From NCBI RefSeq assembly GCF_009931435.1, contig NZ_CP043414.1: a DNA stretch of 64,000 bases; one strand, written 5' to 3'. The notes beneath the pieces were generated by a model that saw only the letters and a list, made by a program, of their open reading frames with translations, was not told the DNA's origin and ran no database searches. The stretch's first letter is position 1. Each line of letters starts with the position of its first letter. This document shows, in pieces, positions 21,880 to 36,068 of this stretch. The translations under genes and the position numbers were made by a program. The stretch comes from Escherichia coli (GTDB lineage Bacteria; Pseudomonadota; Gammaproteobacteria; Enterobacterales; Enterobacteriaceae).

Positions 21880-22083
21880 TTAGTAATTCACCTGGGATGG
21901 GCCATCGCCAGTGGCGCGGTCGTTTTTATCCGGCACCGTGGATTGCGTTTGCGTCTCTACCGGTTTGGTCGGTGGCGGTGCGTTTTTATCTGCAGGCGGG
22001 AAATAGAGCGGACCTTTCAGACCGCAGCCCGTCAGGCTGAAGAGAGTAAGTAATACAGTGAGTGCCTTAAACACGTTTTTCAT
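21880..22083 (-). CDS. lptM: small lipoprotein LptM (YifL)
   Basis: 67 aa; lipobox LTGC in MKNVFKALTVLLTLFSLTGC, followed by a Pro-rich tail. Confidence 0.85.
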   Translation of the reverse strand: MKNVFKALTVLLTLFSLTGCGLKGPLYFPPADKNAPPPTKPVETQTQSTVPDKNDRATGDGPSQVNY

Positions 22084-22271
22084 TATGGATTGCCTGTAAA
22101 GTTCATCGCTTTCTGCTTTCTATCATCGCAGGAGAAGACGTAAAAGCAAGCGTTTAGCGACTCTTTATGAAGTCTGAAAAATGAGGAATTGCTGCGAGTA
22201 TAACGCTTACACGTGGGGATTTATGTTTTGCTGATAGTTTCGTGATCGGCACCTCGCGCCAGGATGGCTTT

Positions 22272-24299
22272 ATGCACTATCGCAATGTGGTTTGTTTGTT
22301 GTCTTTTTTAGTTCCGTCAGCGTGGGGATGCTCGCTCGGTGAACCTGATCATAATATTTACCAGAAACAGGGAAAAGGCGTGGTATACCTGCGCCCTAAT
22401 GAAGAGACAAATCTTTCGTTACCGGAAGTAAATTACCAGCGACTGCGTCGTTTACCTGATTTATTCATTGTTCCTGACACCCAGGACGATGGGGAAAAAG
22501 AACCGCCGTTAAACGACCTTACCACCGATTATATTGATCAGGGCGCATGGGCCTGGTATCCAAATTATGCTTACTTTAGCGATGGCCGTTTTGTTATTTA
22601 TGCGGGCAAGATTGTACAAAATCCATCTGGTTATCCACCGGTCGATGTAGCCTCGTTCCATTCATGGGGCGATTTTGCCGTCGATAAAAACAGCATTTAT
22701 TACAAAGGCCAACGGACAGATGAAAATGGCGGCAAGCAACGCGTCGATGAAAAAACGCTGCGCAAAGTAGGATTAGGTAGCCGTTGGATGCCTGATCGGC
22801 TGGGATTGGTGCTACGTGACGCGCATTTTCTTTATATCGATGGGCACCGTTTTGATAACCCAGAGAGTTTTTCCGTGATCGCGCAAAAATCCTGGGGTCA
22901 ACAAGGGAAATTCGCTTCAACGTTTTTTCCCTGCATTGCCTACCCCTTTGGCCCGTGGGATATGCTTACCCGCACACGAACAAAGTTGCTGATCAATGGA
23001 GAGCAACTGGATGCAGATCCGGACAATTTTTCTGTCGTTCGCTGGATGCCCGGCACCCTGTTTAGCTGGCGTGATAAACACGGCGAGCATCGTAAAGTCA
23101 TTGATCAGGTTCGTTTGGCAAGGAATGAAGATATATCCCGGCAATGTGACAACTTTACGCTGTTAGAAAAAAAGGTGTTCTGGCGCAAGGGGCCAGATTG
23201 TGAGCAGGAAGAATTACCCAGTCTCGACCCGGAGCAGTTTCACCCGATCAGTGACATCGTGGCGCAGTATCAGGACAAGTTGTATGCAATCAGTAAGACC
23301 CCCTTCGGTGAAAATCAGTTGGAGATCATCACCCTGGATAACCCGAATCTGATCATCAATAAACGTTTTAATGCCGGAAGGCATCATGGCTATTTAATCA
23401 CCCGATCAACAAATTGGGACGGACATGAGAAAGACGGTTTACAGGTGTTTGAATCCGTTGGCCCACTGATACTGCTGGACTACCGTGTGCCGAATGAAGC
23501 AGATGCACACCGTGGCAATAACCCGCATTACAAAAAATGGTTTGCTCGCGACGATCGTTACGTTTATGCATTCGATGGTGCGCAGCTTTGGCGTTACCCT
23601 ACGCAATATCCCAAAGCGGCACGTATCAAAGCCGCTAAAGACGACTGGCTGAACGTCAGCCTTAGCCAATTGGACGGTGAGATAATGAAAGATGGCTCAT
23701 TTACTCCCACTGGCATCAAGCACACATCCTCTTTAAAACCCGCCAAGGCATACGAAGATGGGGACAATGAATCTTCATTTATCGTAAATAAATCGGGAGT
23801 AGGCTGGCGAAAAGCGCTTTCACCCGACCTGCAATGGAGTGAGTGGCATTACCTGGAAGGCATTTATCCAAAAAAGTTACATCTGATTACCGAACGTATT
23901 GCACAGTACAAAAACCAACTCTACGTCGTCAGGCGCTCGCATTTTGGAGAAGATCGGCTAGAAATCATAGAGTTGGAGTCATCTTTGCCCATCAAAAATA
24001 AACCGATAAATACGGGCAAGGAGCGTCATTACTTTCTGCAAAGTACCCGACAAAAACAGGATGTGCAGGTATTCACCAGCAGCGGTGCGCTGATAGCAAC
24101 GGAGCGCTTTGCTTATGACGATAGCTATGTCTACACCTGGATTGACGATCAGCTTTATCGCACACCCTCCCCCTGCCCAGCGAAAACATACGTCAGAGAA
24201 AAGAATGTCCGTGAAATTCATAACAGCGACATTATTATTCCGGTGACGGAGGAATCGTGCCGGAACGCAGCAGCAGACGGGCAAACTTTGAAGCCCTGA
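22272..24299 (+). CDS. hypothetical exported repeat protein, DKNYY-like motifs (accessory)
   Basis: Longest ORF starts at GTG 22242; ATG at 22272 has an AGGA SD about 8 nt upstream and gives signal peptide MHYRNVVCLLSFLVPSAWG followed by Cys. Internal duplication (QYQDKLYAISKTPFGENQLEIITLD versus QYKNQLYVVRRSHFGEDRLEIIELE). Motif DKNSIYYKG. Start choice is uncertain. Confidence 0.65.
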   Translation: MHYRNVVCLLSFLVPSAWGCSLGEPDHNIYQKQGKGVVYLRPNEETNLSLPEVNYQRLRRLPDLFIVPDTQDDGEKEPPLNDLTTDYIDQGAWAWYPNYAYFSDGRFVIYAGKIVQNPSGYPPVDVASFHSWGDFAVDKNSIYYKGQRTDENGGKQRVDEKTLRKVGLGSRWMPDRLGLVLRDAHFLYIDGHRFDNPESFSVIAQKSWGQQGKFASTFFPCIAYPFGPWDMLTRTRTKLLINGEQLDADPDNFSVVRWMPGTLFSWRDKHGEHRKVIDQVRLARNEDISRQCDNFTLLEKKVFWRKGPDCEQEELPSLDPEQFHPISDIVAQYQDKLYAISKTPFGENQLEIITLDNPNLIINKRFNAGRHHGYLITRSTNWDGHEKDGLQVFESVGPLILLDYRVPNEADAHRGNNPHYKKWFARDDRYVYAFDGAQLWRYPTQYPKAARIKAAKDDWLNVSLSQLDGEIMKDGSFTPTGIKHTSSLKPAKAYEDGDNESSFIVNKSGVGWRKALSPDLQWSEWHYLEGIYPKKLHLITERIAQYKNQLYVVRRSHFGEDRLEIIELESSLPIKNKPINTGKERHYFLQSTRQKQDVQVFTSSGALIATERFAYDDSYVYTWIDDQLYRTPSPCPAKTYVREKNVREIHNSDIIIPVTEESCRNAAADGQTLKP

Positions 24300-24346: not shown

Positions 24347-24667
24347 ATGAACGACAGTGAATTTCATCGCCTGGCCGATACCCTGTGGCTGACCATTGAA
24401 GAACGTCTGGACGACTGGGATGGCGACAGCGATATCGACTGCGAAATCAACGGCGGTGTGCTGACCATTACCTTTGAAAATGGCAGCAAAATCATTATCA
24501 ACCGTCAGGAACCGCTGCACCAGGTGTGGCTGGCAACCAAACAGGGTGGCTACCATTTTGACCTGAAAGGCGACGAATGGATTTGCGACCGTAGCGGCGA
24601 AACCTTCTGGGATTTGCTGGAACAGGCGGCAACGCAGCAAGCGGGTGAAACAGTCAGTTTCCGCTAA
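24347..24667 (+). CDS. cyaY: frataxin homolog CyaY (iron-sulfur cluster assembly)
   Basis: 106 aa, [33 protein letters not shown] matches CyaY. Confidence 0.95.
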
Positions 24668-24706: not shown

Positions 24707-27253
24707 TCACGAAAAATACTGCTGTAATAGCGGCGTGTCGTGATCCTGATTGGCAGGCGGCATGTTGCCGATAGATTTGGTGCGGAACGGAATCACCTGT
24801 TCACGACCATCAACCTTCACAATCTGATAGAACTGCGGCAGGTTGAAGTTGATGAAGCTTGAGCCGTAGGTAAAACGGTCGTGCGATGACGAGTAGAAGC
24901 GACTGACGTCACGCACCAGCTCCTCTTTGCTGCCTTCGCAGTGGTGATACACCTCAACCCGGTTGCTTTCGTCGAGAATGTAGATATTAAAGCCATTCTC
25001 GTCTTGCGTTTCTTCGAAGAAGAACTGGATGATCCCTTCGCTGGCAAAGCCGTCCACCACCGCCGGTAATTTGACGTGATTGGTTTCAACCTGCACTGAC
25101 AGGCCGTGCAGTTTGTTATGCGAAATAGCGCCATAAAACTCAATGGCATTTTCCAGTTTCTGTACCGATACATTCAGCCGTTCGAAGAACAACCCCCAGG
25201 TTTGACCAGAAACGCGCAGCGCCTTGAAGCGCCCTGTTTCCTGACGGGTGCTGGACAGACGCAGTTCAATACACTCAGAAACCAGTTGCTGCACGCGAGT
25301 ACGGATTAAGCCGCGCAGATGCTGGCTGTAGCAGAAGACTTCCACGCTATCTGGCGGTGCGGCGTCCTGATGCATTTTACCGAGAATAGTTTTCAGGGCT
25401 TCGATCATCGACTGCTCGCCGTTGAAGTGCAGCGTACGCACTTCGTTCCACGAGTTGCGGTACAGCAGGTCCACGCTACCTACCAGGCAATTTTGGTTTT
25501 CGCCAAAGCTGAAGACGTCCAGCTTACGGAAATCAAAATGCACCACCTGATTGCGGAACGCAGCTGTCGGGTCATATTCCAGGTTAACGATAATCGCCAG
25601 ATGGCGAATTTCACACGGGCTGTAGAGCGCTTTTGGCGTCGGTGCAGGCAGGCGCAGCGGGAAATGGTGCGACACATCGGCGACCATCTCCTGCAACTTA
25701 GGCAAATCGACAATGCCGTTGCCTTTAATATACAAGCGGGTGCGCGAGGTCAGCAGGCCGTTAAACCATGCCCACGCCACCAGTTTATTCAGGTAACGGT
25801 TATATTCCAGCGGCTGATGGCTGATGATCGACTCAATATTTGGCGCGCGGTTATACAGATACCAACCTGAACGGTTAGCCCGGCCCGGCGGCACATAAAT
25901 AAAGGTCAGATTCGGTTCCGAGAGATCGGGCGAAATCTGCGGGTTTACCAGCGTCACTTTACCTGGCAATGCTTCAAACGCGGCGTACAGTTTACGCGTC
26001 AGAACACCGATATCCTGTGGGCTGGCGGAGACGCTAAGGTTATTGCGACGCGCAAAGCGGATCAGATTACGGTAGCTCTGCATCATTGCATCGAGCAGCT
26101 CGTTGTGCGCCTCACGCACCTGATCAATCTTCCAGTTAGCGCGGTTATCGAGCATTGCAAGACGACCATCGTCCCATTCCCACTCTTTCACTAACTGGGT
26201 TAGCACTTCACGACGCCAGCCTACACAGGCGCGTTCACGGCTGAGTTTTTCGCACACTTTTAAATAGAAGCAGCGACGCACTAAATCCAGACGGGTGAAA
26301 TCTTCAATCGCCGTCAGGTATTCAGTAACACGCTCCAGCATCATGCAGTACGGATCGAGACCAAACGATACAATCTCGCCATCGTGCAAACGCTGTTTGA
26401 TATCTTTCGCCAGCAGACGTGGGTTCGGGTATTCCCAGGAATAGGCTTCCAGCAGCAGTGTTTTCAGCACCGCTTTGTATGGGGAATCGATACTCTTATA
26501 GAGCTGCCAAAGGCTGGCACCAAAGTACTCTTCGGCAGAAAGTGAGCTTAAGCCGCCGAGATCCAGCCATTCATTAGGAGTAAGCACGCCCTGCGCGTAA
26601 AGCGTCATCACATAGTCGTCGTAATGCTCTTCTTCGTCACACGGCACCATATTCCACAGAATACGCTTACCCGCGAGACGCACGGCAGTGCGATAAAATT
26701 CGTCAAGCAGCAGTATATGCTGGGTGGAGCCACAATCTTCGCCCCCCAGGCTGCCGCTTTCATTATGACGGAAGCGATTTTCATCAATCAGGAAGAAGCT
26801 AACTTCCACGCCCAGCGAGGCGGCCCAGCTTTCCAGCAGGCTGCATTTACGTTGTAGTAACTGGCGCTCTTCGCTATCAAGCCAGGATTGATGACAGACC
26901 CAGATATCCAGGTCAGAGGAACAACTTTGCCCTACGGACGAGGTGCTGCCCATGGTGTATACACCAGTAATTGGAAGCTCACCTTTCGGCGGATCCTGTA
27001 CTGACATTCCACGATACAGTTCAAGCTCGTTCAGGTAGTGGCGTTGAGTTTCATCAGGCGTGTAAAGGCAAATGCCTTTGGGAACGTTACCATCAAGGTA
27101 ACCCGGCATTAGCGGATGGTGATAGTGCAACAATGTCGGCAGTAGACTGTAGACCTGTTGGAATGCAGGCCCCATAGCAGCAAGCGCGCGATCCACACGC
27201 AATTGATTTATGGCATCCAGTCTCTGTTTCAGAGTCTCAATATAGAGGTACAA
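24707..27253 (-). CDS. cyaA: adenylate cyclase (class I)
   Basis: 848 aa, [37 protein letters not shown]; non-ATG start as known for cyaA. Confidence 0.96.
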
Positions 27254-27639
27254 GACGTATCGCCTGATTTGCTACCCGTCATGACTGTGATTCCGCCAAC
27301 ATCAACGGTAACACGCGGCATTCGGGATATTTCGTATGTCAAAGGTAACCGTTACCACTTTTCGCGCCTGGTTTTTTTAGTTTCACGACGAAAAAATGGT
27401 CTAAAACGTGATCAATTTAACACCTTGCTGATTGACCGTAAAGAAAGATGCGCTACATACAAGTGTAGCACCGTTTATTCTCTGTAAATTCCTTATTACG
27501 ACGGCGTGAAACGCCTGTCAGGATCCACTGCCAGACCTCATTTTACGGTTTGCGCAGGCGTCTACGTTTCACCACAACACTGACATCGCTCTGGCAAGGA
27601 TGTTAGGATGGACCACGGATGATAATGACGGTAACAAGC

Positions 27640-28581
27640 ATGTTAGACAATGTTTTAAGAATTGCCACACGCCAAAGCCCACTTGCACTCTGGCAGGCAC
27701 ACTATGTCAAAGACAAGTTGATGGCGAGCCATCCGGGCCTGGTCGTTGAACTGGTACCGATGGTGACGCGCGGCGATGTGATTCTTGATACGCCGCTGGC
27801 GAAAGTAGGCGGAAAAGGCTTATTTGTAAAAGAGCTGGAAGTCGCGCTCCTCGAAAATCGCGCCGATATCGCCGTACATTCAATGAAAGATGTGCCGGTT
27901 GAATTCCCGCAAGGTCTGGGGCTGGTCACCATTTGCGAGCGTGAAGATCCTCGCGATGCCTTTGTGTCCAATAACTATGACAGTCTGGATGCGTTACCTG
28001 CAGGCAGTATCGTCGGGACGTCCAGTTTACGTCGCCAGTGCCAACTGGCTGAACGCCGCCCGGATCTGATTATCCGCTCCCTGCGCGGCAACGTCGGCAC
28101 TCGCCTGAGCAAACTGGATAACGGCGAATACGATGCCATCATTCTTGCCGTAGCCGGACTAAAACGTTTAGGTCTGGAGTCACGCATTCGCGCCGCGTTG
28201 CCACCCGAGATTTCTCTTCCGGCGGTAGGACAAGGTGCGGTCGGTATTGAATGCCGCCTTAATGATACTCGCACTCGCGAGCTGCTTGCCGCGCTGAATC
28301 ACCACGAAACTGCACTGCGTGTTACCGCAGAACGCGCCATGAATACCCGTCTCGAAGGCGGATGTCAGGTGCCAATTGGTAGCTACGCCGAGCTTATTGA
28401 TGGCGAAATCTGGCTGCGTGCGCTGGTCGGCGCGCCGGACGGTTCGCAGATTATTCGCGGTGAACGCCGCGGTGCGCCGCAAGATGCCGAACAAATGGGG
28501 ATTTCGCTGGCAGAAGAGCTACTGAATAACGGCGCGCGCGAGATCCTTGCTGAAGTCTATAACGGAGACGCCCCGGCATGA
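27640..28581 (+). CDS. hemC: porphobilinogen deaminase (hydroxymethylbilane synthase)
   Basis: Start trimmed to ATG at 27640 ([23 protein letters not shown]); 313 aa. Confidence 0.95.
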
Positions 28582-29318
28582 GTATCTTGGTCACCCGCCC
28601 GTCTCCCGCTGGAGAAGAGTTAGTGAGCCGTCTGCGCACACTGGGGCAGGTGGCCTGGCATTTTCCGCTGATTGAGTTTTCTCCGGGTCGACAATTACCG
28701 CAACTTGCTGATCAACTGGCAGCGCTGGGGGAGAGGGATCTGTTGTTTGCCCTCTCGCAACACGCGGTTGCTTTTGCCCAATCACAGCTGCATCAGCAAG
28801 ATCGTAAATGGCCCCGACTACCTGATTATTTTGCCATTGGACGGACCACCGCACTGGCGCTACATACCGTAAGCGGACAGAAGATTCTCTACCCGCAGGA
28901 TCGGGAAATCAGCGAAGTCTTGCTACAATTACCTGAATTACAAAATATTGCGGGCAAACGTGCGCTGATATTACGTGGCAATGGCGGTCGTGAGCTAATT
29001 GGGGATACCCTGACGGCGCGCGGTGCTGAGGTCACTTTTTGTGAATGTTATCAACGATGCGCAATCCATTACGATGGCGCAGAAGAAGCGATGCGCTGGC
29101 AATCCCGCGAGGTGACGACGGTCGTTGTTACCAGCGGTGAAATGTTGCAGCAACTCTGGTCGCTGATCCCACAATGGTATCGTGAGCACTGGTTACTACG
29201 CTGTCGACTATTGGTCGTCAGTGAGCGTTTGGCGAAACTCGCCCGGGAACTGGGCTGGCAAGACATTAAGGTCGCCGATAACGCTGACAACGATGCGCTT
29301 TTACGGGCATTACAATAA
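28578..29318 (+). CDS. hemD: uroporphyrinogen-III synthase
   Basis: 246 aa; 4-nt overlap with the hemC stop; conserved hemCDXY order. Confidence 0.93.
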
Positions 29319-29339
29319 CTCTCATAACAGGAAGCCATA

Positions 29340-30545
29340 ATGACGGAACAAGAAAAAACCTCCGCCGTGGTTGAAGAGACCAGGGAGGCCGTGGACACCA
29401 CGTCACAACCTGTCGCAACAGAAAAAAAGAGCAAGAACAACACCGCATTGATTCTCAGCGCGGTGGCTATCGCTATTGCTCTGGCGGCGGGCGTCGGTTT
29501 GTATGGCTGGGGTAAACAACAGGCCGTCAATCAGACTGCCACCAGCGATGCCCTGGCTAACCAACTTACGGCACTGCAAAAAGCCCAGGAGAGCCAAAAA
29601 GCCGAGCTGGAAGGCATTATCAAGCAACAAGCTGTACAGCTTGAGCAAGCGAATCGTCAGCAAGAAACGCTGGCAAAACAGCTGGATGAAGTCCAACAAA
29701 AGGTCGCGACTATTTCCGGCAGCGATGCTAAAACCTGGCTGCTGGCTCAGGCTGATTTCCTGGTGAAACTCGCCGGAAGGAAGCTGTGGAGCGATCAGGA
29801 CGTCACGACCGCTGCAGCGTTGCTGAAAAGTGCAGATGCCAGCCTGGCGGATATGAATGACCCGAGTCTGATTACCGTTCGTCGGGCAATTACCGATGAT
29901 ATCGCCAGCCTTTCTGCGGTATCGCAGGTGGATTATGACGGCATCATCCTTAAGCTGAACCAGCTTTCTAATCAGGTAGATAACCTGCGTCTGGCCGATA
30001 ATGACAGCGATGGTTCACCGATGGATTCCGACGGTGAAGAGCTTTCCAGTTCCCTCAGCGAATGGCGTATCAATCTACAAAAAAGCTGGCAGAACTTTAT
30101 GGACAACTTCATTACGATTCGCCGTCGTGATGACACCGCCGTACCACTGTTAGCACCGAATCAGGATATCTATCTGCGCGAAAATATTCGCTCCCGCCTG
30201 CTGGTCGCGGCACAAGCCGTACCGCGTCATCAGGAAGAGACTTACCGCCAGGCGCTGGAGAACGTCTCCACCTGGGTTCGTGCTTATTACGATACTGATG
30301 ATGCCACCACCAAAGCGTTCCTCGACGAGGTGGATCAGCTAAGTCAGCAAAATATCTCGATGGATCTCCCGGAAACCCTGCAAAGCCAGGCGATGCTGGA
30401 AAAACTGATGCAGACTCGCGTGCGTAACCTGCTGGCACAACCGGCAGCGGGGACAACGGAAGCTAAACCTGCACCTGCACCTGCACCTGCACCTGCACCT
30501 GCACCGCAAGCTGATACTCCGGCAGCCGCGCCGCAAGGAGAATAA
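29340..30545 (+). CDS. hemX: HemX (putative uroporphyrinogen-III C-methyltransferase-like membrane protein)
   Basis: 401 aa; N-terminal TM segment, coiled-coil-like Q/A/E-rich region, C-terminal (PA)n repeat. Confidence 0.9.
30468..30497. repeat. hexanucleotide tandem repeat (CCTGCA)x5 inside hemX, encoding (Pro-Ala)n
   Basis: cctgcacctgcacctgcacctgcacctgca read directly; in-frame so copy-number change keeps the frame. Confidence 0.8.
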
Positions 30546-30547
30546 CC

Positions 30548-31744
30548 ATGCTAAAAGTGTTGTTGCTCTTTGTTTTGCTGATTGCGGGGATAGTGGTTGG
30601 CCCGATGATTGCCGGTCATCAGGGTTACGTATTGATTCAGACCGACAACTACAATATCGAAACCAGCGTCACTGGCCTGGCGATTATTTTGATTCTGGCG
30701 ATGGTAGTGCTGTTTGCCATTGAGTGGCTACTGCGGCGGATCTTCCGCACAGGCGCACACACCCGTGGGTGGTTTGTCGGACGTAAGCGTCGCCGTGCCC
30801 GTAAGCAGACCGAACAGGCGCTGCTGAAACTAGCGGAAGGCGATTATCAGCAAGTTGAAAAGCTGATGGCGAAAAATGCCGATCACGCTGAACAACCGGT
30901 GGTGAACTATCTGCTGGCTGCCGAAGCCGCGCAACAACGCGGTGATGAAGCACGCGCCAACCAACATCTGGAACGCGCAGCGGAGCTGGCCGGCAACGAC
31001 ACAATTCCGGTAGAAATCACCCGTGTACGTCTGCAACTGGCCCGTAATGAAAACCATGCAGCACGTCACGGCGTTGATAAGCTGCTGGAAGTTACGCCAC
31101 GCCATCCGGAAGTATTACGTCTGGCGGAACAGGCGTATATCCGCACTGGTGCATGGAGTTCGCTGCTGGATATCATCCCATCAATGGCAAAAGCCCACGT
31201 TGGCGATGAAGAGCATCGTGCAATGCTGGAACAACAGGCATGGATTGGCCTGATGGATCAGGCGCGTGCCGATAACGGTAGCGAAGGTTTGCGTAACTGG
31301 TGGAAAAACCAAAGCCGGAAAACGCGTCATCAGGTGGCGTTACAGGTGGCAATGGCGGAACATCTTATTGAATGTGACGATCATGATACTGCCCAGCAAA
31401 TTATCATCGACGGCCTGAAACGCCAGTATGACGATCGCCTGCTGCTGCCGATCCCGCGTCTGAAAACCAATAACCCGGAACAGCTGGAAAAAGTGCTGCG
31501 CCAACAGATCAAAAACGTGGGCGATCGCCCGTTGTTGTGGAGCACACTGGGTCAGTCGCTGATGAAGCACGGCGAATGGCAGGAAGCATCGCTCGCCTTC
31601 CGCGCGGCGCTGAAACAACGTCCGGACGCCTACGATTACGCATGGCTTGCCGACGCGCTGGACAGACTGCACAAGCCGGAAGAAGCCGCAGCGATGCGTC
31701 GCGATGGCTTGATGCTAACGTTGCAGAACAACCCGCCACAGTAG
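30548..31744 (+). CDS. hemY: HemY (TPR-containing inner membrane protein, heme biosynthesis-associated)
   Basis: 398 aa; two N-terminal TM segments then TPR-like repeats; starts 2 nt after the hemX stop. Confidence 0.93.
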   Translation: MLKVLLLFVLLIAGIVVGPMIAGHQGYVLIQTDNYNIETSVTGLAIILILAMVVLFAIEWLLRRIFRTGAHTRGWFVGRKRRRARKQTEQALLKLAEGDYQQVEKLMAKNADHAEQPVVNYLLAAEAAQQRGDEARANQHLERAAELAGNDTIPVEITRVRLQLARNENHAARHGVDKLLEVTPRHPEVLRLAEQAYIRTGAWSSLLDIIPSMAKAHVGDEEHRAMLEQQAWIGLMDQARADNGSEGLRNWWKNQSRKTRHQVALQVAMAEHLIECDDHDTAQQIIIDGLKRQYDDRLLLPIPRLKTNNPEQLEKVLRQQIKNVGDRPLLWSTLGQSLMKHGEWQEASLAFRAALKQRPDAYDYAWLADALDRLHKPEEAAAMRRDGLMLTLQNNPPQ

Positions 31745-31789
31745 CTCTTTCTCACCCGGAGGCAAGCACCTCCGGGGCCTTTCTGATAT

Positions 31790-31998
31790 ATAAAAAAACG
31801 CCTGCTCTTATTACGGAGCAGGCGTTAAAACAGGTCTGTATGACAACAAGTGGGTGCTTCACTCAACGTTGTGTCCATGGTGTCTGATGAGGCATAAGCG
31901 ACATCTGTCAGTGGACGATAAGCACCGTAAACGGCTCTGCGTCATTCCGGAGTTTATGAGGCACTAAGGCGAACATAAGAGATGGAATGAGCATCTAC
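31790..31998 (-). ncRNA. glmZ: GlmZ small regulatory RNA
   Basis: Minus strand reads GUAGAUGCUCAUUCCAUCUCUUAUGUUCGCCUUAGUGCC ... ending in hairpin AAGAGCAGGCGUUUUUUU, matching the remembered GlmZ sequence; located between hemY and aslA as in K-12. Confidence 0.8.
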
Positions 31999-32422
31999 TC
32001 GTTTATTATGCCACAGAGAACCGGGAAATAACATCCCTTAACACTTGTTATGAGATAATTCTGTAATCCTCTTTGCTTCCTGAGTAATAACTTCCTGAGT
32101 GAATATTTCTCCTGCGCACGATTCTACACATATATATAATGAATAATAAAAGTCATTCAATTAATAACATATATATTAATTGCTGTTAAAACTAAAAACA
32201 GCATCAATAATCAACGCGATATAACATCACCGCCTTACATATCACCTGCGCCAGAGGTAGGATTGAAAACGCTCTCCTGATTTTCCAATTCATTATCTGG
32301 ATAAATAAATAATTTATTTTCATCACTATTATTTATGCAATCATCCTGTCAGGGAGAGGGATCTCAATTATCAATGCTTAATTACGTCAACATTTTGACG
32401 ACATGAAACCGGAGCATTTTGC

Positions 32423-34078
32423 ATGGAATTTTCGTTTTCACCCAAACTTCTTGTTGTGGCTGTCGCCGCCGCTCTTCCACTCATGGCCAGCGCAGCAGAT
32501 ACCCCGTCAACCGCCACCGCACGCAAAGGCTTTGCCGGATACGATCACCCAAACCAGTATCTGGTTAAACCGGCGACCACTATTGCCGACAACATGATGC
32601 CGGTGATGCAGCATCCTGCACAAGACAAAGAAACCCAGCAGAAACTGGCGGAACTTGAGAAAAAAACCGGTAAGAAACCGAACGTGGTTGTTTTCTTGCT
32701 GGATGATGTGGGCTGGATGGACGTTGGCTTTAACGGCGGCGGCGTGGCGGTGGGTAACCCTACACCAGATATCGACGCCGTTGCCAGCCAGGGGCTGATT
32801 TTAACTTCGGCGTATTCTCAACCGAGTTCTTCCCCAACCCGCGCCACGATTCTCACCGGACAATACTCCATCCACCACGGCATTCTGATGCCGCCAATGT
32901 ACGGGCAACCGGGCGGTCTGCAAGGGTTAACCACGCTGCCACAGTTGCTGCACGATCAGGGCTACGTCACCCAGGCTATCGGGAAATGGCATATGGGGGA
33001 AAACAAAGAGTCGCAGCCGCAGAACGTTGGCTTTGATGATTTCCGCGGCTTTAACTCGGTATCTGATATGTATACCGAATGGCGTGATGTTCATGTCAAC
33101 CCGGAAGTCGCCCTGAGCCCGGATCGTTCTGAATACATCCAAAAACTGCCGTTCAGCAAAGATGACGTTCATGCCGTGCGCGGCGGTGAACAGGAAGCCA
33201 TTGCCGACATTACGCCGAAATATATGGAAGATCTGGATCAACGCTGGATGGAATATGGCGTTAAGTTCCTCGACAAGATGGCGAAGAGCGATAAGCCTTT
33301 CTTCCTCTATTACGGCACTCGCGGCTGTCACTTCGATAACTACCCGAACGCCAAATATGCGGGTAGCTCTCCGGCGCGCACCTCTTACGGCGACTGCATG
33401 GTGGAGATGAACGATATCTTCGCCAATCTGTATAAAGCACTGGAGAAAAACGGTCAGCTTGATAACACGCTGATTGTGTTCACCTCTGATAACGGTCCGG
33501 AAGCTGAAGTTCCGCCGCACGGTCGCACACCGTTCCGCGGTGCGAAAGGTTCTACATGGGAAGGCGGCGTTCGTGTGCCAACCTTCGTTTACTGGAAAGG
33601 CATGATCCAACCGCGTAAATCTGATGGTATTGTCGATCTGGCGGATCTCTTCCCTACGGCGCTGGATCTGGCAGGACATCCTGGAGCGAAAGTGGCGAAT
33701 TTAGTGCCGAAAACCACCTTTATTGATGGTGTGGACCAGACATCTTTCTTCCTGGGAACAAATGGTCAGTCTAACCGTAAGGCCGAGCACTACTTCCTCA
33801 ACGGCAAACTTTCTGCTGTGCGTATGGATGAGTTCAAGTATCACGTCCTGATCCAGCAACCGTACGCGTATACCCAGAGCGGGTATCAGGGTGGATTCAC
33901 CGGCACAGTAATGCAAACGGCGGGATCGTCGGTGTTTAACCTGTACACCGATCCGCAGGAAAGCGACTCTATCGGCGTGCGCCATATCCCAATGGGTGTA
34001 CCGCTACAGACCGAAATGCATGCGTATATGGAGATCCTGAAAAAATATCCACCACGCGCGCAGATTAAATCTGATTAA
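32423..34078 (+). CDS. aslA: arylsulfatase-family sulfatase
   Basis: 551 aa; signal peptide; sulfatase signature with the Cys/Ser target motif [11 protein letters not shown]. Confidence 0.93.
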
Positions 34079-35631: not shown

Positions 35632-35708
35632 TGGTCGGCGAGAGAGGATTCGAACCTCCGACCCACTGGTCCCAAACCAGTTGCGCTACCAAGCTGCGCT
35701 ACTCGCCG
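35632..35708 (-). tRNA. proM: tRNA-Pro (anticodon UGG)
   Basis: Reverse complement gives CGGCGAGUAGCGCAGCUUGG...GGUCGGAGGUUCGAAUCCUCUCUCGCCGACCA with cloverleaf and CCA end. Confidence 0.9.
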
Positions 35709-35750
35709 AAATACTGCTTTTTGAATTTTTAGTTCAATTCTTTAAAGTCG

Positions 35751-35837
35751 TGGTGCGAGGGGGGGGACTTGAACCCCCACGTCCGTAAGGACACTAACAC
35801 CTGAAGCTAGCGCGTCTACCAATTCCGCCACCTTCGC
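35751..35837 (-). tRNA. leuT: tRNA-Leu (anticodon CAG)
   Basis: 87-nt class II tRNA; reverse complement begins GCGAAGGUGGCGGAAUUGGUAGACGCG and ends ...CCUCGCACCA. Confidence 0.9.
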
Positions 35838-35857
35838 ATTGTCACAACTTCTAATAA

Positions 35858-35934
35858 TGGGGTGGCTAATGGGATTCGAACCCACGACAACTGGAATCAC
35901 AATCCAGGGCTCTACCAACTGAGCTATAGCCACC
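35858..35934 (-). tRNA. hisR: tRNA-His (anticodon GUG)
   Basis: Reverse complement GGUGGCUAUAGCUCAGUUGGUAGAGCCCUGGAUUGUGAUUCC...GCCACCCCA, with the extra 5' G typical of tRNA-His. Confidence 0.9.
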
Positions 35935-35991
35935 ACTACAAATCTTGTTACGCGGTATTACTACCACCGCAGCTCAAGCGCCGGGACTAAA

Positions 35992-36068
<77 letters not shown>

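Follow-up and report, generated by a model that had tools for sequence, protein, structure and literature searches.

The 3' end of the hemX gene of this Escherichia coli strain carries an in-frame tandem array of six perfect CCTGCA hexanucleotides, a VNTR that is identical to the MLVA locus known as CVN014 and EHC-1 and is thus already known and already used. The number of units ranges from 2 to 14 among E. coli genomes; very probably it changes by replication slippage, and the resulting differences in the length of the HemX tail would be tolerated as near-neutral variation. In the following, the window indicates the whole stretch of 64,000 nucleotides that was analysed (64 kb).

hemX lies on the plus strand at positions 29340-30545 of the window and, according to the list of open reading frames and to Pfam, encodes a 401-aa inner-membrane protein of the HemX family (PF04375); the matching gene is annotated hemX in RefSeq genomes. 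The sequence contains six perfect CCTGCA units (30468-30503), after which it continues with CC, and Tandem Repeats Finder detects a periodicity at 30467-30505, with period 6, 6.5 copies, 100% matches and a score of 78. The array begins, at 30468, with the first base of a codon of the 401-codon reading frame, and a codon-by-codon print from 30465 gives AAA, then CCT GCA six times, then CCG CAA. The array encodes (Pro-Ala)6, corresponding to HemX residues 377-388 in the context K(PA)6PQ, and it ends 12 residues before the C-terminus of the protein. An earlier note on this DNA had described a perfect in-frame CCTGCA array in hemX; its existence, its start and its frame hold, but the count of five units, ending at 30497 and encoding (PA)5, is one unit short. 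No other tandem array with more than 2.3 copies is found across the 64-kb window, and thus the hemX array is not a chance occurrence.

A 221-bp query around the array was searched against 5,426 complete E. coli genomes and matched 5,425 of them; in 5,424 genomes the match covered at least 80% of the query length. The locus has the organization of a VNTR, with short units arranged head-to-tail, as detected by Tandem Repeats Finder, between unique flanks conserved in 5,424 of the 5,426 genomes. The allele distribution was obtained from a rank-spread sample of 60 of the 5,425 matched genomes, rather than from a full census: in this sample match lengths are 197, 203 and so on up to 269 bp, always in steps of 6 bp, and alleles from 2 to 14 units occur 9, 2, 5, 8, 9, 6, 6, 5, 3, 2, 2, 1 and 1 times, respectively, with a median of 6 units and a Nei D of 0.89. 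Fourteen loci were fetched, one for each length class together with an additional 6-unit O157:H7 example; they contain uninterrupted CCTGCA arrays of 2 to 14 units, while their flanks are otherwise conserved. These counts provide the comparison of hemX alleles that the earlier note had proposed, and they reveal neither a uniform repeat number nor a length difference placed elsewhere in the protein. Indeed, its reading of 401 versus about 393 aa in K-12 as repeat-number variation proved exact, since hemX of K-12 MG1655 (b3803) is 1182 bp long, encodes 393 aa and has 2 units instead of 6; alignment of the window HemX with a K-12-type HemX (L001, 393 aa, 2 units) shows a single 8-residue gap within the Pro-Ala run and no other indel.

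Variation is also evident at short evolutionary distances. Strains labelled O157:H7 carry 5, 6, 7 and 12 units, and both flanking haplotypes, with either GCT or GGT after the array, cover wide allele ranges; the spread within O157:H7, a very young clone, and the wide ranges of both haplotypes indicate frequent and recurrent change. A state lacking the array occurs as well: in strain NCTC11023 (NZ_LS483297.1, 4601240-4601709) an in-frame deletion has removed the complete array together with the next five codons (PQADT), and hemX is 1155 bp long.

Assembly errors are known to arise in short tandem repeats, and an odd internal duplication is present in P0001 (485 aa), a metagenomic HemX variant described below; the variation in length could then have been produced by faulty sequencing or assembly in a region of low complexity. 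However, the length classes are all exact multiples of 6, they are made of perfect units and they come from finished genomes produced by many laboratories, PCR fragment sizing in several MLVA studies independently gave the same allele range, and the array does not exceed 84 bp, well inside a single read. An artefactual origin is hardly credible.

Replication slippage, or slipped-strand mispairing, would instead change the number of units in 6-bp steps, each step leading to the gain or loss of one Pro-Ala dipeptide and leaving the reading frame, the HemX stop codon and the hemY ribosome-binding site intact. As the tail is predicted to be unstructured, is poorly conserved and lies beyond the folded HemX domain, changes in its length would be tolerated, being neutral or nearly so, and they would accumulate quickly; this combination would explain why the locus discriminates closely related strains. 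The presence of perfect units in all alleles and the continuous allele spectrum argue for slippage and tolerance, and tolerance is further suggested by the viable array-less state of NCTC11023, by the repeat-free gene of Salmonella and by the lack of conservation of the tail. The mutation rate of VNTRs depends on copy number, and the overrepresentation of 2-unit alleles is in keeping with the general rule that slippage is rare in short arrays. For other 6-bp loci of O157, measured rates are about 4e-5 to 2e-3 (PMC3777172). A promotion of slippage by hairpins finds little basis in the single-stranded DNA fold of the array, which is weak and no better than that of shuffled sequences (-7.4 kcal/mol, z = -1.3); slippage does not require a hairpin, and no clear contribution of secondary structure to it is apparent.

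The position of the array close to hemY raises the alternative that the unit number has a regulatory effect. At the hemX-hemY junction, read on the plus strand at 30535-30550, the Shine-Dalgarno-like hexamer AAGGAG of hemY (30535-30540) sits within the last hemX codons, CAA GGA GAA (Q-G-E), and is followed by the hemX stop codon TAA (30543-30545) and, 2 nt downstream, by the hemY ATG (30548-30550). From the end of the array there are about 30 bp to the hexamer and 45 bp to the ATG, and the proximity of the hemX stop to the hemY start makes translational coupling plausible; the array could accordingly act in phase variation, as a contingency locus, or regulate hemY, with a number of units that alters how strongly hemX or the coupled hemY is expressed, for instance by means of the run of the less-used proline codon CCT shortly before the hemY start. 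This reading is highly improbable. The 6-bp unit produces no frameshift in any allele, so that no on/off state is possible, and 14 of the 14 fetched alleles share both the stop codon and the junction sequence, the latter being present in Citrobacter and Salmonella too; because changes come in multiples of 6 bp, the frame, the stop codon and the spacing between Shine-Dalgarno hexamer and ATG are untouched by the unit number. An effect of the CCT codons on hemY is pure speculation. The contingency loci of Haemophilus, Neisseria and Campylobacter have in common with the hemX array the probable mutational mechanism, slipped-strand mispairing in a short tandem repeat located in or close to a gene; however, the hemX unit is a multiple of three and is not placed in a promoter, so that no on/off switching can result. 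Assignment to phase-variable contingency loci, which act as frame or promoter-spacing switches, was thus rejected, as the 6-bp changes are in frame and the stop codon and the hemY junction are kept.

The gene order in the window is hemC-hemD-hemX-hemY-(GlmZ)-aslA. A full-length gene for the GlmZ (SraJ) sRNA is located between hemY and aslA (31792-31998, minus strand, 218 bits), and a tRNA cluster, Arg-His-Leu-Pro, is found at 35632-36068 on the minus strand; the placement of both corresponds to ordinary E. coli synteny. When the 6-kb hem region (27000-33000) is compared with complete E. coli genomes, the best ones are at most 99.2% identical and only 5 genomes reach 99%; finished E. coli genomes include few members of the lineage, or of the Shigella/Escherichia relative, to which the window belongs. 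Elsewhere in the window, a 685-aa open reading frame (22242-24299, plus strand), which starts like a lipoprotein (...SAWGC) and is clearly duplicated internally, is flanked by a yifL/lptM-like reading frame (21880-22083, minus strand) and by cyaY (24347-24667, plus strand). It gave no match in Pfam. Near-identical full-length copies occur in only 5 of the 5,426 complete E. coli genomes, and partial variants with 75-77% identity are found in some others; homologues from E. albertii and Salmonella, with 54-87% identity, are named hypothetical or "DKNYY family" (PF13644). This pattern suggests an accessory gene that diverges rapidly and occupies a variable site.

The identity of the hemX array with known typing loci derives from the primer sites. 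The site of primer CVN014-R (GCAGCRGGGACAACGGAAGC) is found at 30444-30463 on the plus strand and that of CVN014-F (TCCCCGCAATCAGCAAMACAAAGA) at 30567-30590 on the minus strand, within the 5' end of hemY, both as exact matches to the primers listed in Table 1 of PMC8143711. The same paper provides the formula for allele calling, (PS-111)/6; the amplicon in the window, 30444-30590, is 147 bp long and gives (147-111)/6, that is allele 6. CVN014 belongs to the generic E. coli MLVA schemes GECM-7 and GECM-10 (Lindstedt et al. 2007, Lobersli et al. 2012), and nothing distinguishes it from the array described here: the 6-bp unit is shared, both primers match exactly and the 111-bp offset yields an integer allele, 6. 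The earlier note had proposed the array as a candidate VNTR marker; the locus is indeed variable, but the proposal understated its status, since it is already an established marker. CVN014 has been called "the most variable locus" of the generic scheme (PMC3877011); published data report 9 alleles in the range 4-15, with D = 0.83 (PMC3519732), values of 2-11 within ST131 (PMC3407997) and allele frequencies for the locus (PMC5217547, Table 3). Published allele range and frequency spectrum match the complete-genome data, and the 60-genome spread sample resembles the frequencies of that Table 3. As for NCTC11023, this strain also has a SNP in the CVN014-R primer site, and it would probably be scored as null by CVN014 PCR.

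EHC-1, from the MLVA scheme for EHEC O157, O26 and O111 used by Japanese public institutes (Izumiya et al. 2010), is the same locus, amplified with another primer pair that gives a shorter product than CVN014. The forward (GTGCGTAACCTGCTGGCACA) and reverse (CGCGGCTGCCGGAGTATC) primer sites are exact matches to the sequences in S5 Table of PMC10062581 and are located at 30420-30439 on the plus strand and at 30513-30530 on the minus strand, respectively. EHC-1 is outside the CDC PulseNet O157 scheme (PMC10062581). Its published values in O157 clades, about 4-13, are in line with the 5-12 units counted in O157:H7 genomes. A further 6-bp in-frame VNTR with similar allele numbers, O157-19/TR7/VNTR-19, was first suspected to be the hemX array because of its allele 6 in EDL933 (PMC3777172), but it is a separate locus and was rejected: its forward primer (sequence from PMC10062581 S5) has no match in the window and falls in rcnA in O157 genomes. 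In the open-access MLVA literature that was searched, no paper on E. coli identifies hemX as the gene of the locus. The match for Salmonella was limited to an unrelated SNP in hemX.

Concerning the protein, Pfam identifies the HemX family (PF04375) at aa 130-363, with E = 3.5e-108 and 361 bits against a gathering cut-off of 25.9. In every genome checked PGAP names the protein "uroporphyrinogen-III C-methyltransferase", whereas the MG1655 record reads "PF04375 family protein HemX"; the Pfam scan of HemX detected no methyltransferase family and, besides PF04375, gave only weak sub-threshold matches. Judging from its sequence, the methyltransferase name appears to be a legacy label, a misnomer that has been propagated. 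[quoted passage not shown]

An AlphaFold2 model of HemX, built on 118 homologues (mean pLDDT 80.3), displays a long N-terminal helix and a confident helical domain ending at residue 366; the last helix spans residues 348-366 and is followed by coil up to residue 401, with pLDDT decreasing from about 61 to 46. The region after the Pfam domain, aa 364-401, is encoded at 30429-30542 on the plus strand; it is of low complexity, rich in Pro and Ala, and contains the array. The earlier note had regarded the repeat as a flexible linker. However, only 12 residues follow it, the Pfam domain (aa 130-363) ends at residue 363 and the model has no secondary structure after residue 366; this geometry rejects an interdomain linker, that is a segment between two folded domains, and the repeat is predicted to be part of a disordered C-terminal tail that links nothing. 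A single N-terminal transmembrane helix would place this tail in the periplasm. Across 134 diverse homologues, the stretch beyond the domain differs in length, with a median of about 20 aa and a maximum of about 100, and is of low complexity, with PK or QP dipeptide repeats in a few distant members; as the projection of the domain end was misplaced in a few distant homologues, only this general trend of variable, low-complexity tails was used.

Other genera give indications on the age of the repeat. In both Citrobacter gillenii and C. rodentium the orthologous codons comprise four GCACCT units, that is the same hexamer in another register, and its presence at the orthologous Citrobacter site implies that the microsatellite predates E. 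coli. In C. sedlakii the 3' end of hemX (L019, 1390-1440) contains three copies of a 9-bp unit, GCACCTGCC, which encode (APA)3; here the microsatellite has changed its period. The orthologous site of Salmonella has one CCT GCC and no repeat. On the basis of these sequences the array appears to have expanded, contracted or changed period independently in separate lineages, while the very end of the tail, PAAAPQGE or APQGE, is conserved across genera. A further variant, P0001, comes from an ENA metagenome contig; in this HemX of 485 aa the C-terminal part of the domain is present as an 84-residue internal tandem duplication, and its repeat is interrupted (PAPAPAPTPAPAPAP). It may represent a real duplication or an assembly chimera of two alleles.

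The conserved end of the protein speaks against near-neutrality, as it might indicate a function. The Pro-Ala run could serve as a periplasmic spacer of tunable length, in analogy with the Pro-rich segments of TonB or the hinge of OmpA, and set the reach of this conserved end; its copy number would then be adaptive and selected. The recurrence of Pro/Ala-rich tails in both Escherichia and Citrobacter, with the last residues PAAAPQGE conserved, is consistent with this reading, as are the Pro-rich tails, some with PK or QP repeats, of many distant HemX homologues and the typical EHC-1 alleles, whose medians in published typing values differ between O157 clades. HemX also has conserved two-hybrid interactions with the envelope protein YhcB (PMC8163987). 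Nevertheless, such a spacer is very unlikely. Alleles are continuous from 2 to 14 units, with no favoured length; a natural isolate lacks the array and Salmonella lacks the repeat; length and composition of the tail are not conserved across the family, and nothing structured follows the repeat in the AlphaFold2 model. Conservation of APQGE is confounded, since these codons contain the hemY Shine-Dalgarno sequence, and the overlapping ribosome-binding site accounts for the conserved QGE. The differences in EHC-1 medians between O157 clades could be due to drift or to selection.

The hinge of OmpA, the Pro-rich spacer of TonB and the linkers between the lipoyl domains of E2p are flexible, Pro/Ala-rich segments of low complexity that join two folded or functional parts. 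Like them, the HemX run is of low complexity, has alternating prolines and is expected to be extended and unstructured; differently from them, it is followed by just 12 residues and by no domain. To our knowledge, none of these segments is encoded by a perfect microsatellite and none varies in length between strains to such an extent. The three rival explanations, a spacer, an effect on hemY and an artefact, have no positive support beyond plausibility, and slippage in a tail that tolerates changes in length accounts best for the variation of the hemX array.

Use of the locus as a marker dates back to 2007-2010 and includes the subtyping of E. coli in general, of ESBL clones such as ST131 and of EHEC. 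What is added here is that CVN014 and EHC-1 are both assigned to the Pro-Ala tail of HemX as a single, precisely located feature, and that the unit count in the window is corrected to allele 6. Beyond such bookkeeping the significance is small, the mapping of CVN014 to the HemX tail being a clarification only. It is very unlikely that the length of the HemX tail is non-neutral, in which case it would be an evolvable spacer on the predicted periplasmic side of this Mic60-related, YhcB-interacting protein, and selection, acting on envelope function or on the coupled expression of hemY, would account for lineage-typical unit numbers such as the EHC-1 medians that differ between O157 clades. For genome annotation, the finding means that the differences in HemX length between strains, from 384 to 417 aa, are microsatellite alleles and not errors.
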